Virus genome (UHGV): UHGV-1367882
DNA: 38,869 bases
Origin: a virus
Strand: one strand, 5' to 3'
Shown: positions 6,830-12,968 of the stretch, piece by piece
Position numbering within the stretch: the stretch's first letter is position 1
How the letters are laid out: every line of letters begins with the position of its first letter
The notes under the pieces: generated by a model
Seen by the model: only the letters and a program-made list of their open reading frames with translations
The model's database searches: none
What the model was told of the DNA's origin: nothing
Translations under genes and position numbers: made by a program

Positions 6830-6878
6830 TGCTCAAATCTATTTGTTATACTAATAATCAATGATTGGAGGGATTAAC

Positions 6879-7241
6879 ATGACCATTTCAGAACGGATAA
6901 AAAAGGTTAGAACATCCTTGGGGATGTCTCAAGAAAAATTCGGCGCTCAGTTGGGGACTAGCCGAGACGCCATAAATAATGCAGAAAACGGTAGAGCTGA
7001 AATAAAAGAAACTCTTATCAAATTGATCTGCAAAGAATTTAATGTGGAATACGAATGGATTAAAACCGGCAACGGATCCATGTTCCATCAAAGTTCTGAC
7101 GACGATATCCCCGCCATGGTTGATGAATTGATGGCAAGTGAAAACGAAACAGCCAAAGCGGTTTTCCGCGCTTTTACACAGTTAGATGAGGATGATTGGA
7201 AAGTAGTCGCAAAGATTATTGATTTATTAGGCAAAAAATAA
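6879..7241 (+). CDS. XRE-family HTH transcriptional repressor (CI-like)
   Basis: MTISERIKKVRTSLGMSQEKFGAQLGTSRDAINNAENG is an HTH_3. RBS GGAGGG. The track start is slightly upstream. Confidence 0.8.
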   Translation: MTISERIKKVRTSLGMSQEKFGAQLGTSRDAINNAENGRAEIKETLIKLICKEFNVEYEWIKTGNGSMFHQSSDDDIPAMVDELMASENETAKAVFRAFTQLDEDDWKVVAKIIDLLGKK

Positions 7242-7270: not shown

Positions 7271-7704
7271 TGGTATTTAGTGGTGTCTATGTAGATAAGC
7301 GATAAAGTTGTAAATACGCCTTAGAATATCTTCGTCTGCAATCTCACTGAGCATGTCCATAATTAACTTAGCGTATCCTGTCACCCTAATACCCTCCTAC
7401 TTGTTATATGTAATGTTTAAAACCCGCACATTTCAGAACATTTGTTTGATTTTGTCTTATTATACTCTCACCGCATCGAAAAATCAACCGTAATATATTA
7501 CGCGCCGCTCGGAGGATTGTCGCGATCTGATATGGTCATTTGCTAAGCGCACACTCAATATCACATTTGCATATCTTATATATCAATTATAGAGCATTAG
7601 GTATAAATTTGACAAGGAAAAATATTCCATCGAGTAAAATTTTCACATTTAAATTTGTGGAAAATGCTGGATTTCGTTGATTTTTACATAGATCAAGGAT
7701 TAAA

Positions 7705-8832
7705 ATGATAAAGAAACAAGGAAAGGACGGTCTGCTTATGTCCAGAAACGCTAATGGAGACGGAAGCCTAAGAAAAAAGCGAGAAGGTCTATGGGAATAT
7801 CGTGTCACGGCGGGATATGATGCGGACCAGCACGCCATCCGCAAGTCCTTTTATGGCAAAACCAAAACGGAAGCAAAGAATAAATACAAGGACTGGCTGA
7901 AGCAATCCGGCACTCCTCAAATTGAAAAAACAAAAACCATCGGGGAATGGGCTACCCAATGGCTTGAAATATATAAAAAGGGGAAAGTGGAGGATGGCAC
8001 ATACCGCAATTATGAGCAGTATGTAAAAAACCATATTATCCCCGGCCTCGGGAATCTCAAATTTGAAAGCGTCCGTCCGGCTCATATTGAGCGATTTATG
8101 AAAGAGCGGAGCAATCTGTCAAAGTCCGCCCAGCAGCACATCAAAATAACCTTGAATGGCATTTTTGAGACCGCAATAGACAACGGCTTCTGCCTTACAA
8201 ATCCTTGCCGTAAGATCAGCATAAAAAAAGATAAGGATCAAACACCAAAGGTATTCGGAAAATCCGATATAGCTGCGTTATTAGAGCTTGCTCCATCCGT
8301 AGAGCACGGAGAAATTATAGAGTTGCTCTTGTATACGGGTCTGCGCATTGGCGAAGCGGCGGCGCTGCAATGGAGAGATATTAACCGGGAAGACGGTATA
8401 ATTGTCGTCCGCCATTCCGTGGCCGTAAAAAACGGCGGCGGGTATTATTTGAAATCCACCAAAAGCGGGAAAGAGCGGTATATTGGTATCACGGACGATC
8501 TAGGGGCATTACTAGACAGGATCCCGATGAAGGGGCTGTATGTCCTTGCCAATACAGAATTTAATTATTGGGATACTTTCCAGCTCAGGAAGCAATATAC
8601 GGCTGCTTTTACCGCAATAAACGCAATCCTGGTGGACCAGGGCCGTCCTGCCGTGCCGTATTTATCCCCGCACAAATGCCGTCATACATACGCTACATAT
8701 TTAATAAAGGGCGGAGCCGGGCTAAGGGAAGTGCAAGAACTGTTGGGGCACAGTTCCACATCAGTCACAGAAGTCTATACCCATATAGACATAGAGGATA
8801 TACGGAATAGCTCGTCTAAACTAGCATATTGA
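7705..8832 (+). CDS. int: Tyrosine-type site-specific integrase
   Basis: LLYTGLRIGEAAALQWRDI (Arg). HKCRHTYATYLIKGGAGLREVQELLGHSSTSVTEVYTHI (H-x-x-R ... Y). It is adjacent to the att core. Confidence 0.85.
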   Translation: MIKKQGKDGLLMSRNANGDGSLRKKREGLWEYRVTAGYDADQHAIRKSFYGKTKTEAKNKYKDWLKQSGTPQIEKTKTIGEWATQWLEIYKKGKVEDGTYRNYEQYVKNHIIPGLGNLKFESVRPAHIERFMKERSNLSKSAQQHIKITLNGIFETAIDNGFCLTNPCRKISIKKDKDQTPKVFGKSDIAALLELAPSVEHGEIIELLLYTGLRIGEAAALQWRDINREDGIIVVRHSVAVKNGGGYYLKSTKSGKERYIGITDDLGALLDRIPMKGLYVLANTEFNYWDTFQLRKQYTAAFTAINAILVDQGRPAVPYLSPHKCRHTYATYLIKGGAGLREVQELLGHSSTSVTEVYTHIDIEDIRNSSSKLAY

Positions 8833-8839
8833 AAGTTTA

Positions 8840-8859
8840 TTGGGGTACTGTTGGGGTAC
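8840..8859. repeat. Two direct TTGGGGTAC repeats (candidate integrase arm-type sites, left arm)
   Basis: Copies at 8840-8848 and 8851-8859. Confidence 0.5.
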
Positions 8860-8937
8860 GGCTTAATTTATGATTGAGCAATAAAAAAATAAAGACCGCT
8901 CAAACCCGCATGATTGCTAGGTTCTTGCGATCTTCAT

Positions 8938-8984
8938 TTGGTTGGGATGGCTGGAATCGAACCAGCACGCGCAGAGTCAAAGTG
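8938..8984 (-). other. attP core: 3' portion (anticodon loop to CCA) of a tRNA-Gln(TTG)-like sequence with no 5' half
   Basis: Minus strand reads ACTTTGACTCTGCGCGTGCTGGTTCGATTCCAGCCATCCCAACCA. It has a CTTTGAC anticodon loop, a T-arm GCTGG-TTCGATT-CCAGC, an acceptor 3' strand and CCA. It closely resembles the Firmicutes tRNA-Gln 3' end. Confidence 0.6.
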
Positions 8985-9021
8985 TAATAAAACCCGCTAT
9001 TTATGCGGCTTTATAGGCTAT

Positions 9022-9097
9022 TTACCCCAATTTATGCCGTTTTTAGATACGTCTGAACACCTCTAAAATCACTCGCGTTGGGGCATAATTGGGGTAC
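9022..9097. repeat. Right-arm copies of the TTGGGGTAC motif (one inverted, two direct)
   Basis: ttaccccaa (9022-9030, inverted). ttggggcat (9078-9086). ttggggtac (9089-9097). Confidence 0.5.
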
Positions 9098-9115
9098 AAA
9101 ACAATTGTAGTGATA

Positions 9116-9144
9116 TTGACTATTTGAGCCAATCTGAGTATAAT
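9116..9144 (+). promoter_or_regulatory. Consensus sigma-70 promoter (TTGACT-17-TATAAT)
   Basis: All three elements are canonical. There is no ORF directly downstream. Confidence 0.6.
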
Positions 9145-9150
9145 AAACAA

Positions 9151-9226
9151 TGTAGAACAAAAACGAACACCGACTAAATCGGTGCCAGTTTTTATTGGGC
9201 CGGTGCCTGCACAGGCCCTCTTTTTT
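9151..9226 (+). ncRNA. Candidate small RNA (~75 nt) ending in two intrinsic-terminator hairpins
   Basis: Starts from the consensus promoter. Hairpin caccga-ctaaa-tcggtg plus ccagttttt, then gggcc-N12-ggccc plus tctttttt. No coding potential. Confidence 0.3.
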
Positions 9227-9323
9227 AATAACAATGCCGGAGCACCCGTTAGGATGCCCCGATCTTCATTCTATTTTTGCATTGTGTTGCTAATGCTGTT
9301 GACAATGAAGGGAAAATATGTTA

Positions 9324-9352
9324 TTGACAAAATCTTAAATTTTGCATACAAT
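9324..9352 (+). promoter_or_regulatory. Sigma-70 promoter (TTGACA-17-TACAAT) for the Panacea/MazF-like operon
   Basis: Canonical hexamers ~120 nt upstream of the AAGGAGG RBS of the 9471 gene. A second TTGACA lies 25 nt upstream. Confidence 0.55.
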
Positions 9353-9470
9353 ATGAGTGCGGGGGATGGTTATTTAACCTGCCCCTCGCTAGACGATGAA
9401 TGAAGGGGATCACTAGTATTTTAAGTGGTTCCCTTTTAGTCAATTAAAAGCAACGAAGGAGGTTAGGGCA

Positions 9471-10025
9471 ATGGCTAATATTTTTGATTTTGCTAATTTC
9501 TTTATTGATTTGTCTTTGCACAACGAAGAAGATCCTATGACAAATCTGCGCCTTAACAAACTTCTTTATTTTGCTCAAGGGTGCAGCTTTGCCAAAAGAG
9601 GCGTTCCGCTTTTTTGTGAGGATTTCCGGGCGTGGAAATTTGGCCCCGTTGTGCCTGTCGTCTATCATGAGTTTAAAAAATACGAGGCAAATCCTATTGA
9701 CAAAGTTGTCGGCACATATAGCCCGTCTGTTTTTTCTGAAGATGAATTCGATATATTGCTGAATGTCGCAAATGAATATGGCAAATACACCTCTCCAACG
9801 CTAGTCGATATATCTCATATCCCCCAGGGGCCGTGGGATATTGCATATCGTCATTGCGTTGAAAGCGTAATACCAAAAAGTGACATAAAGGAGTATTTTC
9901 AGACTAATTCGTGCAGTTCACGTTTTAATTCACATAGAGATTCTATTCAAACAATTTATGGAAGGCGAGATAAAGACGGTTATCTTGTGCTTCCTAAAGA
10001 GTTAGGCAGTGACTGGGCCCTGTAA
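9471..10025 (+). CDS. Panacea-domain (DUF4065; SocA/GepA-like) antitoxin
   Basis: FANFFIDLS...MTNLRLNKLLYFAQGCSFAKRGVPLFCEDFRAWKFGPVVPVVYHEFKKY is the DUF4065 signature. Confidence 0.75.
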   Translation: MANIFDFANFFIDLSLHNEEDPMTNLRLNKLLYFAQGCSFAKRGVPLFCEDFRAWKFGPVVPVVYHEFKKYEANPIDKVVGTYSPSVFSEDEFDILLNVANEYGKYTSPTLVDISHIPQGPWDIAYRHCVESVIPKSDIKEYFQTNSCSSRFNSHRDSIQTIYGRRDKDGYLVLPKELGSDWAL

Positions 10026-10323
10026 AAAGTGGGAAGTGTGGCTGGCTAACCTAAGGGTTGAAGATTCAGATGAAGTTAAACAACGCCCTGTGGTTATATT
10101 AGAACACAATATAGTCGCTGTATTAGCTTTGAAAGTAACCAGTCATGAACCTCGCCACAATTTTGCTGGTGAATATAGCCTAAAATACTGGAAAGAAGCC
10201 GGGTTGCACAGACCGTCAACTGTTAGAACTTCTCAAAGGCTTCACTTGTTAGAAAACGACCTAAATAGAAAATTAGGTTGTTTACACGCATCGGACATTC
10301 TTCAAATACTTAAATATTTATAG
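10009..10323 (+). CDS. MazF/PemK-fold toxin (PanT-like partner of the Panacea antitoxin)
   Basis: WEVWLANLRVEDSDEVKQRPVVILEHN...IVAVLALKVTSH matches the MazF pattern GxIWxVxL...RPVLVI...VVPxTS. It overlaps the upstream gene by 17 nt. GTG start. Confidence 0.6.
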   Translation: MTGPCKKWEVWLANLRVEDSDEVKQRPVVILEHNIVAVLALKVTSHEPRHNFAGEYSLKYWKEAGLHRPSTVRTSQRLHLLENDLNRKLGCLHASDILQILKYL

Positions 10324-10332
10324 ATGAAAAAC

Positions 10333-10370
10333 GCCGGGGCATCCATAACGGGTGCCCCGGCTTTCTCTTT
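10333..10370. terminator. Bidirectional rho-independent terminator (end of the TA operon and end of the lysis operon)
   Basis: gccggggca-N10-tgccccggc with aaaaa upstream and tttctcttt downstream. Confidence 0.7.
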
Positions 10371-10372
10371 GC

Positions 10373-10537
10373 CTATTTGGCGTCGAATAGCGCCTTGATC
10401 TCATCCCCTGCTATCTCGTGTGCATCCACGGATGCAATACGCAATGGAGTAGGACCAGCCTCCAACACTTGGAGCAGCTTTTCAGCGGTTGCCTCGTCAC
10501 GGATAATCACCGGTTTGCTGATGCTTTTACTCGCCAC
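10373..10537 (-). CDS. Small ORF (54 aa, GTG start) downstream of the holin; uncertain
   Basis: GTG overlaps the holin stop. The product has no recognised motif. Confidence 0.25.
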
Positions 10538-10745
10538 CGGTCGCCTCTCCTACGCTCACTTCGGGCAGACCCGCAATGGACGTGAGCAGGGACAAGATGC
10601 CAGCAAGGGCGGACGCGCTGGCTACCATAACCCAGTTTACGTCTCCTATCACGGCGGACGTGCCGATGGTTGCTACCGCTGTCTGCGCCACCGTCTTGAT
10701 TGCGCGGATACCCGCAGCCTTGATCCAGCTTTTCATGTTTTTCAT
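10527..10745 (-). CDS. Holin (phage_holin_4_1-like), 72 aa
   Basis: AAGGAGG RBS then ATG at 10745. [63 protein letters not shown] has two TM segments. Confidence 0.65.
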
Positions 10746-10758
10746 TTTCGATCCTCCT

Positions 10759-11082
10759 TTAATCTTCATAAATGATTTCCAGGCCATAGGCTTTTGCCGC
10801 CTCATGTTCGATGCGGCACCCCCGCGCCTGCTCCCAGCCCTTGCAGAAATAGGCTACATGACACAGGCTCATGTTTTCCAATGATTTTGCCAGGAAGCAT
10901 AACGGGCGATTGACAACGCCTCTCTTCTCAAAATTGTTTTCGCTGTACCATTCATCGGTAAATAGCGTGTTGACGATTTCATAGCCCTTCTCTTTGAGCA
11001 CTTTGATAGCTCTATCCCTTGTGGCTACGATTTCTTTATCCGTCTTGCCGCCCATAGGCTGTGAAAGCATTGCTTTTTTCAT
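10759..11082 (-). CDS. DUF4406-like small protein in the lysis cassette
   Basis: [22 protein letters not shown] motif. The family call is from memory. Confidence 0.35.
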
Positions 11083-11333
11083 TTCCGATCCTCCAATCTG
11101 GTAATACGTCCCTCATGGTTGGCCAGTATTTTATCCTGTTCGTCATTCTTTTCCCAGATGCGTTCATGAGCCTTCTGGCTGTGCTCCTCCTGCCTTTCCA
11201 GCCGCTTTTCCACGTTGCTGAGAGTGGTGTTCAGCTTGGCTATAGAGGAGTTGAGCTTCAGCACCGGGGCCAACACCGTCCCCAGCAATCCCACCAGCAC
11301 CACAATCACCTGGACAATATCCCATCCATTCAT
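11079..11333 (-). CDS. Lysis-associated membrane protein (N-terminal TM plus coiled coil), holin-like
   Basis: MNGWDIVQVIVVLVGLLGTVLAPVL TM followed by a charged coiled coil. Lies immediately downstream of the lysin. Confidence 0.4.
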   Translation of the reverse strand: MNGWDIVQVIVVLVGLLGTVLAPVLKLNSSIAKLNTTLSNVEKRLERQEEHSQKAHERIWEKNDEQDKILANHEGRITRLEDRK

Positions 11334-11345
11334 ATTCCTTCCCCT

Positions 11346-12422
11346 TTACGCTTTCACCAGATCCTCGGTGCGGATCCACCCGGTGGCCGCTCCTCCCGGA
11401 GCCGTGCTCACCAGCACTTTGCCGCTGCCCACCTGGAGGACATACAGCACGCCCTGCCGGACGAAGGAAGCCATGTGCTGCCCCGTGGCGAAGTACTCCG
11501 CGCCATCTCGTACCTTTACCGCATCCCCCACAGCAAAGCCGGAGGGATCAGGCTGAGGCGTGGGCTCCGGCTGGGACGGTTCAGGCTCGGAAGGCGCAAC
11601 AGAACCTCCCCTTTCCGCCACCAGATCACCCGTCTTGATCCAGCCCGTTGCTGCGCCGCCGGGAGCGGTGGAAACCAGAACCTTACCATTCCCCACCTGG
11701 ATAACGTACAGCACACTTTCGCGCACCCAGGATGCCATGTGCTGCCCCGTGGCAAAGTACTCCGCGCCAGCCCGTACCCGGACGGCGTCCCCTACAGCGA
11801 ACCCGGAAGGAGAAGGAGCTGGTTCAGGCTCGTCCTCCGATTCAGTATTTTCGGTATACGTCACTCCCAGATGTGCACAGATCACTTTCGCCTGAGCCTC
11901 CGCCATCTCCCGGAGCTTACCATCCTGCTTGAGCACCGCCTCATCATGGGTATTGTCGTGGAACCCGTTCTCGCAGATAAACACCTTTGGACACCCGGTA
12001 GCCACGGCGTAACCGATGACGGTATAGTAATCGTAGCTGGGATCGTTGGTGGACCGCTTCGTCTTCGCGCCCCGGCTGGGAGACCCCAGTACCGTTGATG
12101 CCGCTTCTGCCAGCTCCGCAGCCATCCCCTGGTTTTCCGGCTGCCGCACGGAGTAATACGCCTCTGCACCGCGCCCGCCTCCGGCGTTGCTGTGCTCACT
12201 GATCATCAGGTCATACCCTGCCGCCTTGTTCCCGCGCTCCGTCAATTCAGGACGTTCGCTCTCCGCGCGTGTCAGTGCCGCCTCACATCCACACCGTTCC
12301 AGCGCCGTTTTCAGATATCCAGACAGCTTCCACATGCCTTCATGTTCAAGGTACCCCGTAGGTCCCCCGTTGACACATCCCGGACCGTGTCCTGGATCGA
12401 TCATGATTTTTGCTTTACTCAT
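11346..12422 (-). CDS. N-acetylmuramoyl-L-alanine amidase (Amidase_3) endolysin with two C-terminal SH3-like cell-wall-binding repeats
   Basis: IMIDPGHGPG...EHSNAGGGRGAEAYY is the catalytic domain. GFAVGDAV(R/K)VR(A/D)GAEYFATGQHMAS...GWI(K/R)T(G/E)DLV appears twice. Confidence 0.8.
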   Translation of the reverse strand: MSKAKIMIDPGHGPGCVNGGPTGYLEHEGMWKLSGYLKTALERCGCEAALTRAESERPELTERGNKAAGYDLMISEHSNAGGGRGAEAYYSVRQPENQGMAAELAEAASTVLGSPSRGAKTKRSTNDPSYDYYTVIGYAVATGCPKVFICENGFHDNTHDEAVLKQDGKLREMAEAQAKVICAHLGVTYTENTESEDEPEPAPSPSGFAVGDAVRVRAGAEYFATGQHMASWVRESVLYVIQVGNGKVLVSTAPGGAATGWIKTGDLVAERGGSVAPSEPEPSQPEPTPQPDPSGFAVGDAVKVRDGAEYFATGQHMASFVRQGVLYVLQVGSGKVLVSTAPGGAATGWIRTEDLVKA

Positions 12423-12437
12423 TTTCTTTTCCTCCTT

Positions 12438-12968
12438 TTATTCTGCCGCAATATAGGTCAGTGTAAAATTGCCTTTAAACCCTACCGTTGAGTGCACATC
12501 TCCGGCAGCGAGTGTTTTCCATGAATATACCGGAGCGCCGCTTATCTCCTGCGCACCAACAAAAACAATCTGATTGCTTCCCGTCTTTATACAGGCAAGC
12601 ACAGGAGACGTATCGTGGCTTGTCCCATCGGCCGCCAATGCAGCATAAGCATCATATTTTGCCGTAAAAGGCAGCCCTGTGATGGCGAGCGTCCCCGTCA
12701 ACGTTGTGGCAGTTTCTACGCTGAATGCAACGCCAACCGTTACCATATCCCCGCAACGGACATAACTCCCGCTCACCGACTTGGATATCCCATCTGCGCA
12801 GCTCACCGGCATCGCCAGCGTAAGGGACTGCGTGGAGCCGGATACCGGGAGGTTCCCGGAGCTGCTTCCGATGTACACCTCCCCCGTGTCCGTGCACAGG
12901 GCGGGCTCCCCCACCGCCAAAGTCGGTAAATTGGCCTTAGTCCCTCGTCTTAGTCTTATACTGGCCAT
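12438..12968 (-). CDS. Tail fiber-like protein (176 aa)
   Basis: N-terminus RLRRGTKANLPTLAVGEPALCTDTGEVYIGSSSG is the conserved phage tail-fiber N-terminal motif. Confidence 0.5.
   Translation of the reverse strand: MASIRLRRGTKANLPTLAVGEPALCTDTGEVYIGSSSGNLPVSGSTQSLTLAMPVSCADGISKSVSGSYVRCGDMVTVGVAFSVETATTLTGTLAITGLPFTAKYDAYAALAADGTSHDTSPVLACIKTGSNQIVFVGAQEISGAPVYSWKTLAAGDVHSTVGFKGNFTLTYIAAE

Follow-up and report, generated by a model that had tools for sequence, protein, structure and literature searches.

Among the toxin domains listed next to Panacea antitoxins (PanA) is PemK. Two MazF-fold PanA-associated toxins (PanTs), from P. moraviensis and B. ruminantium, have been validated as toxic, neutralised and translation-inhibiting, and five tested PanAT pairs, one of them with a MazF-fold PanT, form stable complexes in a type II-like manner (Kurata et al. 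2022, PNAS 119:e2102212119, PMC8832971). In Dataset S1 of that study, the cluster pT27/T25 contains two Veillonellaceae toxins, M. micronuciformis WP_006941388.1 and A. geminatus WP_006790999.1, and the validated Bifidobacterium ruminantium PanT (Kurata et al. 2022, PMC8832971). Here, we describe a related locus in a 38,869-nucleotide (nt) stretch of DNA from the virus genome UHGV-1367882 (hereafter the window, meaning this whole stretch), where two overlapping genes, designated panA and panT, very probably form a bicistronic, PanAT-type type II toxin-antitoxin (TA) module that a temperate phage carries as a moron. Morons, known from lambdoid phages, are autonomous units of promoter, gene and terminator inserted between conserved phage genes. 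The toxicity of PanT and its neutralisation by PanA are predictions drawn from sequence comparison and structure models.

Exact-sequence look-ups identified WP_006941388.1 as the toxin of locus L025 and WP_006790999.1 as that of L023. The window toxin is 44% identical to WP_006941388.1 (E-value (E) 2e-32), and the window PanA is 46% identical, over its full length with the tail included, to the PanA partner of the same protein (E 7e-48). Since the pair is homologous to listed T25 members, it belongs to the T25-type class and is, as judged by this homology, a new phage-borne member of a published PanAT class with one validated representative. With that class it shares a stand-alone Panacea antitoxin without N-terminal domain, the antitoxin-first order, a small overlap and a toxin annotated as PemK/MazF. 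It differs in that the window copy is a mobile, phage-borne cassette, the validated B. ruminantium pair, WP_081815666.1 and WP_026646888.1, being marked 'NotPhage', and its membership runs via homology to the two other listed members (Megasphaera and Anaeroglobus). Thus, the proposal of a PanAT-type module made in the initial annotation is supported by domains, fold and pairing, but the pairing itself had already been published (Kurata et al. 2022). As an annotation, the result is useful but ordinary, and the parts that reach beyond the known class and merit follow-up are the comparison with an empty site and the hypothesis on the PanA C-terminal tail, both presented below. The cassette comprises the following features, with lengths of proteins in amino acids (aa):

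9237-9262, no strand assigned: left GC-rich hairpin copy, forming the left cassette boundary; reads as a minus-strand terminator (terminator scan)
9263-10332, plus strand: moron cassette body (promoter, leader, panA, panT), missing from the related phage L154
9324-9352, plus strand: sigma-70-type promoter TTGACA-17-TACAAT, matching at 11 of 12 positions, within the inserted segment
9359-9436, plus strand: panA 5' leader, predicted to form hairpins at 9359-9389 and at 9402-9436, of which the latter (13 base pairs (bp)) precedes a UUUU and is terminator-like
9471-10025, plus strand: panA, predicted antitoxin gene, ATG start, 184 aa
10009-10323, plus strand: panT, predicted MazF/PemK-fold toxin gene, GTG start, 104 aa
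10333-10371, no strand assigned: right hairpin and T-tract, 12 pairs of which 10 are GC, followed by TTTCTCTTTG (terminator scan)

The toxin assignment was approached through profiles and structure. PanT matches the Pfam model PF02452 PemK_toxin with residues 6-103, covering profile positions 1-104 of 109 (E 5.9e-9, 36.5 bits for a cut-off of 23.1), as well as phrog_1936, 'MazF-like growth inhibitor' (E 2.6e-16). Single-sequence phmmer searches of PanT and PanA against the PDB returned chance matches only. A profile built from an alignment of 15 toxin homologues (A1) matched only MazF/PemK/EndoA chains in the PDB, at full length, the best being MazF-mt3/6 and S. aureus MazF (E 2.5e-5 to 6e-5), with MoxT and EndoA also found. 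The AlphaFold2 (AF2) model of PanT (predicted local distance difference test (pLDDT) 82.7, predicted template modelling score (pTM) 0.75) superposes on the MazF proteins of M. tuberculosis, S. aureus and B. subtilis and on B. anthracis MoxT, and the 50 matches listed by Foldseek against the PDB are all MazF/PemK/EndoA chains (probability 1.00, template modelling (TM) score 0.72-0.81), in line with the SH3-like barrel of MazF/Kid/CcdB. The by-eye motifs from which the initial annotation had proposed a MazF fold for the 104-aa protein (KWEVWLANL, RPVVIL and LALKVTSH) fall on MazF motifs in the profile alignment, so the profile searches agree with it; a fold other than a MazF/Kid/CcdB-like one, named there as grounds for abandoning the idea, was not what AF2 and Foldseek returned. 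Within A1, residues R26, P27 and S45 are invariant and T44 is at least 90% conserved, T44 being invariant in a 33-row paired alignment (A3). The residues of S. aureus MazF aligned to R26 and T44 are its RPV-motif Arg and IT-motif Thr, respectively. In B. subtilis MazF, these motifs hold the catalytic residues Arg25 and Thr48. These alignments strongly support that both catalytic residues of MazF endoribonucleases, the Arg (R26) and the Thr (T44), are preserved in PanT. In addition, the PanT subfamily carries an invariant W61 within a conserved 'WKEAGL' motif.

The upstream gene had been ascribed a DUF4065/Panacea signature, and this was borne out by a match to Pfam PF13274 SocA_Panacea over residues 28-122 (E 4.8e-23, 82.7 bits for a cut-off of 25.7), the only Pfam domain found in PanA. 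The protein consists of a Panacea core (about residues 1-145) and a low-confidence C-terminal tail (about 146-184, ...YGRRDKDGYLVLPKELGSDWAL), the AF2 model showing a pLDDT above 90 for residues 1-140 and of 44-70 for residues 151-184. A Foldseek search of this model against the PDB, which holds no Panacea structure, gave no significant neighbour (best E 0.09, TM score 0.26), and an exact-sequence look-up of the window PanA found no matching contig. The sole NCBIfam match of PanA is SocA_antitoxin NF047745 (E 2.7e-26), and the Pfam family is itself named after SocA, which, together with the Panacea/DUF4065 domain present in the antitoxin of Caulobacter crescentus SocAB (a type VI TA system), would fit a Panacea protein acting as a proteolytic adaptor that delivers the toxin to ClpXP. 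However, that match scores 92.3 bits, far under the cut-off of 190, so PanA is not a SocA equivalog, and PanT has a MazF fold and is unrelated to SocB. Given also that the five tested PanAT pairs, including the MazF-fold one, form stable complexes, binding rather than ClpXP delivery is expected, and a SocAB-like mechanism is highly improbable. Membership in the SocAB type VI group was rejected on the bit score and on the MazF-fold partner.

The closest systems on the toxin side are MazEF, PemIK and EndoA-EndoAI, with which the locus has in common the fold, size and catalytic Arg/Thr motifs of PanT, the antitoxin-first overlapping operon and, by inference, an acidic, aromatic antitoxin C-terminal tail as likely inhibitor. 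It differs from them in that its antitoxin has a Panacea core where theirs have a DNA-binding domain of the AbrB/SpoVT or ribbon-helix-helix type, and PanT is a distinct subfamily (W61), too diverged for a single-sequence match to MazF in the PDB. A canonical MazEF/PemIK operon is ruled out by the Panacea-only upstream gene, although the toxin is a member of the family.

The FlaGs criterion of Kurata 2022 asks for a conserved neighbourhood of PanA and a putative toxin gene, and the pair was conserved in all homologue contexts retrieved. Seven homologue look-ups returned contigs, and in each of them the gene immediately 3' of the PanA-like one encodes about 105-122 aa and usually overlaps it. 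The partner is annotated as PemK in six of the seven, and the seventh (L013/L014), which has no Pfam match on record, matches the toxin hidden Markov model (HMM) at 6.6e-42. These pairs occupy diverse contexts: prophages, adjoining the integrase (L001/L002), a phage head module (L003), a site beside an amidase (L005), and chromosomal sites in Megasphaera, on a contig with TonB-receptor neighbours and on a contig with a Globicatella-annotated protein. In several different phage backbones, a homologue of 61% identity (P0017) lies between integrase and holin. When viral loci were instead collected through the toxin, with an 8-sequence toxin subset as query, 26 of 29 had a PanA gene upstream. Both the pair and its overlap are kept in a 96%-identical copy (P0001) and in many copies of 35-70% identity. 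Taken together, these data strongly support that relatives of panA and panT move jointly, as an unbroken pair, among many phages and bacterial chromosomes.

Two further groups of PanA-containing loci were observed. In L030 and L032 (Megasphaera) and L038 and L039 (Veillonella), a tail-bearing PanA is followed by a truncated (55-86 aa) or replaced toxin, and these are apparently orphan antitoxins left by toxin-gene decay. Tail-less phage PanAs (about 144-170 aa; L119-L150, many on IMG/VR contigs) are followed by an unrelated, non-PemK protein of about 290-350 aa, and this combination apparently represents a different, abundant phage PanAT class.

The layout of the cassette is that of a self-contained transcription unit. 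The 17-nt overlap of the two reading frames (10009-10025), read from the open reading frames (ORFs), the cassette's own TTGACA-17-TACAAT promoter and its location between integrase and lysis genes had all been reported in the initial annotation and were recovered here. The panT gene is translationally coupled to panA. A ribosome-binding site, AAGGAGG (9456-9462), lies 8 nt 5' of the panA ATG, and the same panT start was called by an independent gene caller on the 96%-identical homologue P0001. Promoter-like sites are numerous in this 2.2-kilobase (kb) region, with 10 found for 4.1 +/- 2.0 in shuffled sequences. Downstream, a GC-rich terminator hairpin of 12 bp (10333-10361), followed by TTTCTCTTT, closes the panAT operon; on the minus strand the same hairpin is followed by GTTTTTC, and it probably terminates the convergent lysis operon as well. 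The panA leader has a predicted folding energy of -38.5 kcal/mol (z = -2.26), as stable a fold being reached by 5 of 200 shuffled sequences; its hairpins are not conserved in L074, the closest related cassette, and a regulatory RNA in the leader is therefore not claimed. Rfam contained no RNA family matching 8700-10500.

These features bear on whether the pair works as a TA system in its host at all. It could instead be a non-toxic or decayed remnant, or a host-takeover RNase of the phage with PanA as its timing inhibitor, as the PHROG category of phrog_1936 ('moron, auxiliary metabolic gene and host takeover'), the orphan PanAs with truncated toxins in Megasphaera and Veillonella and the lack of toxicity in E. 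coli of three comparable PanTs, two of them phage-borne, might suggest. Against this, neither ORF is disrupted, the catalytic residues have been retained, the pair and its overlap persist in homologues across the identity range given above, and the cassette has a near-consensus vegetative promoter and is placed outside the lytic operons and on the opposite strand. We consider it improbable that the pair is not a working TA system.

Several observations nevertheless weigh against a functional defensive TA module. Four comparable PemK/mRNase-type PanTs appear in the table of untested-positive pairs of Kurata 2022; the PanTs of Listeria phage B025, Salmonella phage Emek and Flavobacterium xanthum were not toxic in E. 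coli, and the Chryseobacterium bovis PanT, annotated as MazF, was recorded as 'toxic | toxic', which we read as toxic and un-neutralised (Kurata 2022, PMC8832971). PanA has no DNA-binding domain, so that no autoregulatory DNA binding is evident. In PADLOC-DB 2.0, PanA has no match and the toxin only a non-significant one (E 0.045), and the Panacea literature covered reports no defence role for the PanAT class.

The moron status of the cassette is demonstrable by comparison with a close relative. The phage L154 (IMGVR_UViG_3300045988_142732) has an integrase 98% identical to that of the window and is collinear with window positions 7392-9261 (94% identity) and 10317-10536 (94.5%), without everything that lies between. 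When the empty site of L154 (6490-6600) was compared with window positions 9194-9300 and 10289-10400, a single GC-rich hairpin of about 28 nt was found in L154, and one copy on each side of the insert of about 1.1 kb in the window. Because exactly the cassette is missing from a phage that is 94% identical, and one hairpin is present there versus two here, the cassette is a demonstrable phage moron. The insert is 39.0% GC, whereas the window as a whole has 51.3% and the late region next to it 55.7%, and on this ground an insertion is more likely than a deletion in L154. As in the morons of lambdoid-type phages, the cassette has its own promoter and terminator, deviates in GC content, is missing in a near-identical relative and lies at the junction of integrase/attP and lysis genes (attP being the phage attachment site). 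Unlike in those, the insertion point is a terminator hairpin found on both sides of the insert, apparently inverted: the left hairpin forms an inverted-repeat pair (I1) with 10346-10364, and the right hairpin matches the left one better inverted than direct, by about 3 versus 5 differences, which is a weak distinction. No published mechanism known to us would place inverted copies of the target hairpin on both sides of an insert. The window phage with the cassette and L154 without it form a natural with/without pair, in which cost and benefit can be tested directly, through lysogen stability and the exclusion of other phages.

The question of how PanA would neutralise PanT leads to the C-terminal tail. 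An alignment of 37 PanA homologues revealed a C-terminal motif beyond the Panacea core, G-[YR]-R-D-x-D-G-x-L-V-L-P-K-E-x-D-D, which is kept across PanA homologues of 34-63% identity. Two tail variants can be distinguished, ...GYRDxDGxLVLPKEWDD and ...ALPxDWYDPxEDxEWEAYL, with LP-x-[DE]-[WYF]-[DY]-[DE] in common. The last 20 PanA residues are 29% acidic and 7.6% basic, and the toxins are net basic. Purpose-built HMMs were applied to the genes neighbouring PanA relatives at 139 further loci, drawn from genomes and viral contigs, and partners were counted among 90 non-redundant PanAs. Where the tail was at least 25 aa long, a PemK-like gene followed in 46 of 56 cases, most of the remaining tail-bearing PanAs having truncated toxins or being orphans; not one of 26 tail-less PanAs had a PemK partner, and unrelated proteins of about 290-350 aa were found downstream instead.

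A separate line of evidence comes from L185 (1747-2001; IMGVR_UViG_3300045988_162567, a 118-kb contig), where a very acidic 84-aa ORF without Panacea domain overlaps a PemK toxin of the same subfamily by 19 nt. It carries two motifs resembling the PanA tail, ATILSASWDDDNDEDWDLL and IPILPVSWDDHDDDVWEAYL, and among 9,616 ORFs scored with the tail HMM it was the sole match outside PanA (E 0.021, the next-best at about 9), which makes it a candidate tail-only antitoxin by sequence. The partner counts, together with this protein, indicate that the acidic, Trp-containing tail of about 40 aa is probably the neutralising element of PanA. A profile of 29 tails run against 5.8 billion proteins found only two short PanA C-terminal fragments (E 1-4), the tail being too short for database-wide detection. 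By eye, another tail-like protein was seen in L183/L184 (1836-1997), a 53-aa ORF ending in ...DDEWREEDSWDELYKELSK, with near-consensus promoters and directly 5' of a toxin of the same subfamily (TAAATG junction), for which the tail HMM gave no match.

Alternatively, neutralisation could be the work of a three-dimensional epitope on the Panacea core, the 'conformational neutralisation' known from B. choladocola PanA, with the tail serving as degron, in dimerisation or in sensing of the trigger. A stand-alone Panacea domain can neutralise directly, and the Y56A and H120E substitutions abolish neutralisation (Ernits 2023); the window PanA has no extra folded domain beyond its core. The tail-bearing PanAs, moreover, form one clade, so that the association of tail and PemK is confounded by shared ancestry and may be inherited rather than functional; the tail-only example comes from a single lineage with a modest E-value; and in a partial Mantel test, by which co-evolution and co-inheritance are not separable, the core-toxin correlation (r 0.52) exceeded the tail-toxin one (r 0.21, p 0.003). 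Direct neutralisation by the core is thus possible, but we regard it as rather unlikely, since none of the tail-less PanAs, whose cores are equally good, is partnered with PemK, a Panacea-less tail-only protein precedes a toxin of the same subfamily, and the tail is acidic and aromatic, as expected by comparison with MazE of an RNA mimic in the MazF groove.

Neutralisation by the tail would resemble the 'linear neutralisation' cases of Ernits 2023, namely C. doosanense PanA(Phd-C)::Doc, B. subtilis PanA(PAD1)::toxSAS and B. fungorum PanA(ZBD)::MqsR, in which a toxin-specific neutralising element is appended to the Panacea core. In those cases the appended element also occurs without Panacea (PAD1-only D27 antitoxins), as the tail-only ORF of L185 would here. 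The difference is that the element proposed here, on comparative genomics alone, is a short and probably disordered tail specific for a MazF-fold toxin. Neither a role for the C-terminal tail nor a PemK-specific tail is described in the main texts of Kurata 2022 and Ernits 2023, the supplements of Ernits 2023 contain nothing on a Panacea-PemK interface, and a literature search from 2023 onwards returned no Panacea work newer than these two studies.

A broader reading, which we put forward tentatively and hold at somewhat less than even chances when its parts are taken jointly, is that in PemK-partnered PanAs the neutraliser is the portable, disordered, acidic tail of about 40 aa and not Panacea and that, separately, the cassette moves by recombination at terminator hairpins. 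The tail, with its core LP-x-[DE]-[WYF]-[DY]-[DE] and often a second Trp, would then be a transferable MazF-inhibiting peptide that occurs with or without Panacea, and the Panacea core would be freed to act as sensor of the trigger. In this respect, the choice between tail and core bears on the question raised by Ernits et al. 2023, that is, what purpose Panacea has when it is not the neutraliser, and the tail offers a short candidate motif for a MazF-inhibiting peptide.

In a lysogen, both proteins would be made constitutively, with PanA binding PanT and blocking its RNase activity. The blocking element would most likely be the tail, disordered on its own, which may sit in the basic groove where the PanT dimer would bind RNA, while the Panacea core would serve as scaffold or sensor. 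The MazE C-terminus inhibits in this manner, by occupying the MazF groove. Loss or inactivation of PanA, triggered by an infecting phage that shuts off host transcription, by proteolysis or by prophage loss, would set free PanT to cleave RNA and arrest translation, and the outcome could be either the protection of the lysogen population by abortive infection or the stabilisation of the prophage. The cassette is convergent to the late operon and outside it, and in different temperate phages it is found again at the junction between integrase and lysis genes; this position, along with the vegetative promoter, fits expression from the prophage.

Both outcomes are possible and nothing separates them. 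That the module mainly stabilises the prophage, by post-segregational killing or addiction, rather than defending the lysogen against other phages would agree with what is classically seen for type II modules that reside on mobile elements and with the position of the cassette next to the integrase and a candidate attP. Related pairs are also found on chromosomes outside prophages, as in L009/L010, however, and the recurrent position between integrase and lysis genes across phage backbones is typical of lysogenic-conversion or defence morons, so we hold a mainly stabilising role as a possibility of about one chance in three.

The surroundings of the cassette are those of a temperate phage:

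6861-7241: helix-turn-helix repressor-like gene
7705-8832, plus strand: tyrosine integrase (phrog_1 integrase, E 3.7e-68)
8939-8984, minus strand: tRNA-like 3' fragment of 46 nt, candidate attP core, read from the sequence; context, outside the cassette
10527-10805, minus strand: holin, lysis cassette
11346-12422, minus strand: endolysin, lysis cassette, followed by tail genes

The tRNA-like fragment contains an anticodon-loop-like CTTTGAC and a T arm (GGTTCGATTCC) and ends in ...CCAACCA, and it is flanked by direct repeats of TTGGGGTAC (8840-8859 and 9078-9097). It was not called by ARAGORN or Rfam. By its sequence, the fragment is probably the attP core, with the repeats as arm sites for the integrase; the location next to attP given in the initial annotation is thus plausible on account of the fragment and its flanking repeats, but not proven, ARAGORN and Rfam being silent. 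A megablast search with 7600-12500 found no match among 50,697 GenBank phages.

Between the candidate attP and the cassette, a second near-consensus promoter, TTGACT-17-TATAAT (9116-9144), precedes three successive hairpins (9166-9186, 9198-9228 and 9237-9262). The whole stretch (9116-9262) is common to the cassette-less L154 and could represent stacked terminators or a tiny transcript. On the other side, within the lysis cassette, a nucleoside 2-deoxyribosyltransferase-like gene (10759-11082, minus strand; phrog_355, E 4.7e-21) overlaps the holin gene. Positions 10537-11089 are not shared with L154 and thus form a second mosaic difference between the two phages. Finally, the endolysin C-terminus, encoded in a region of 60-65% GC, contains two tandem repeats of about 75 aa, SGFAVGDAV[RK]VR.GAEYFATGQHMAS.VR..VLYV.QVG.GKVLVSTAPGGAATGWI, which are presumably cell-wall-binding domains.

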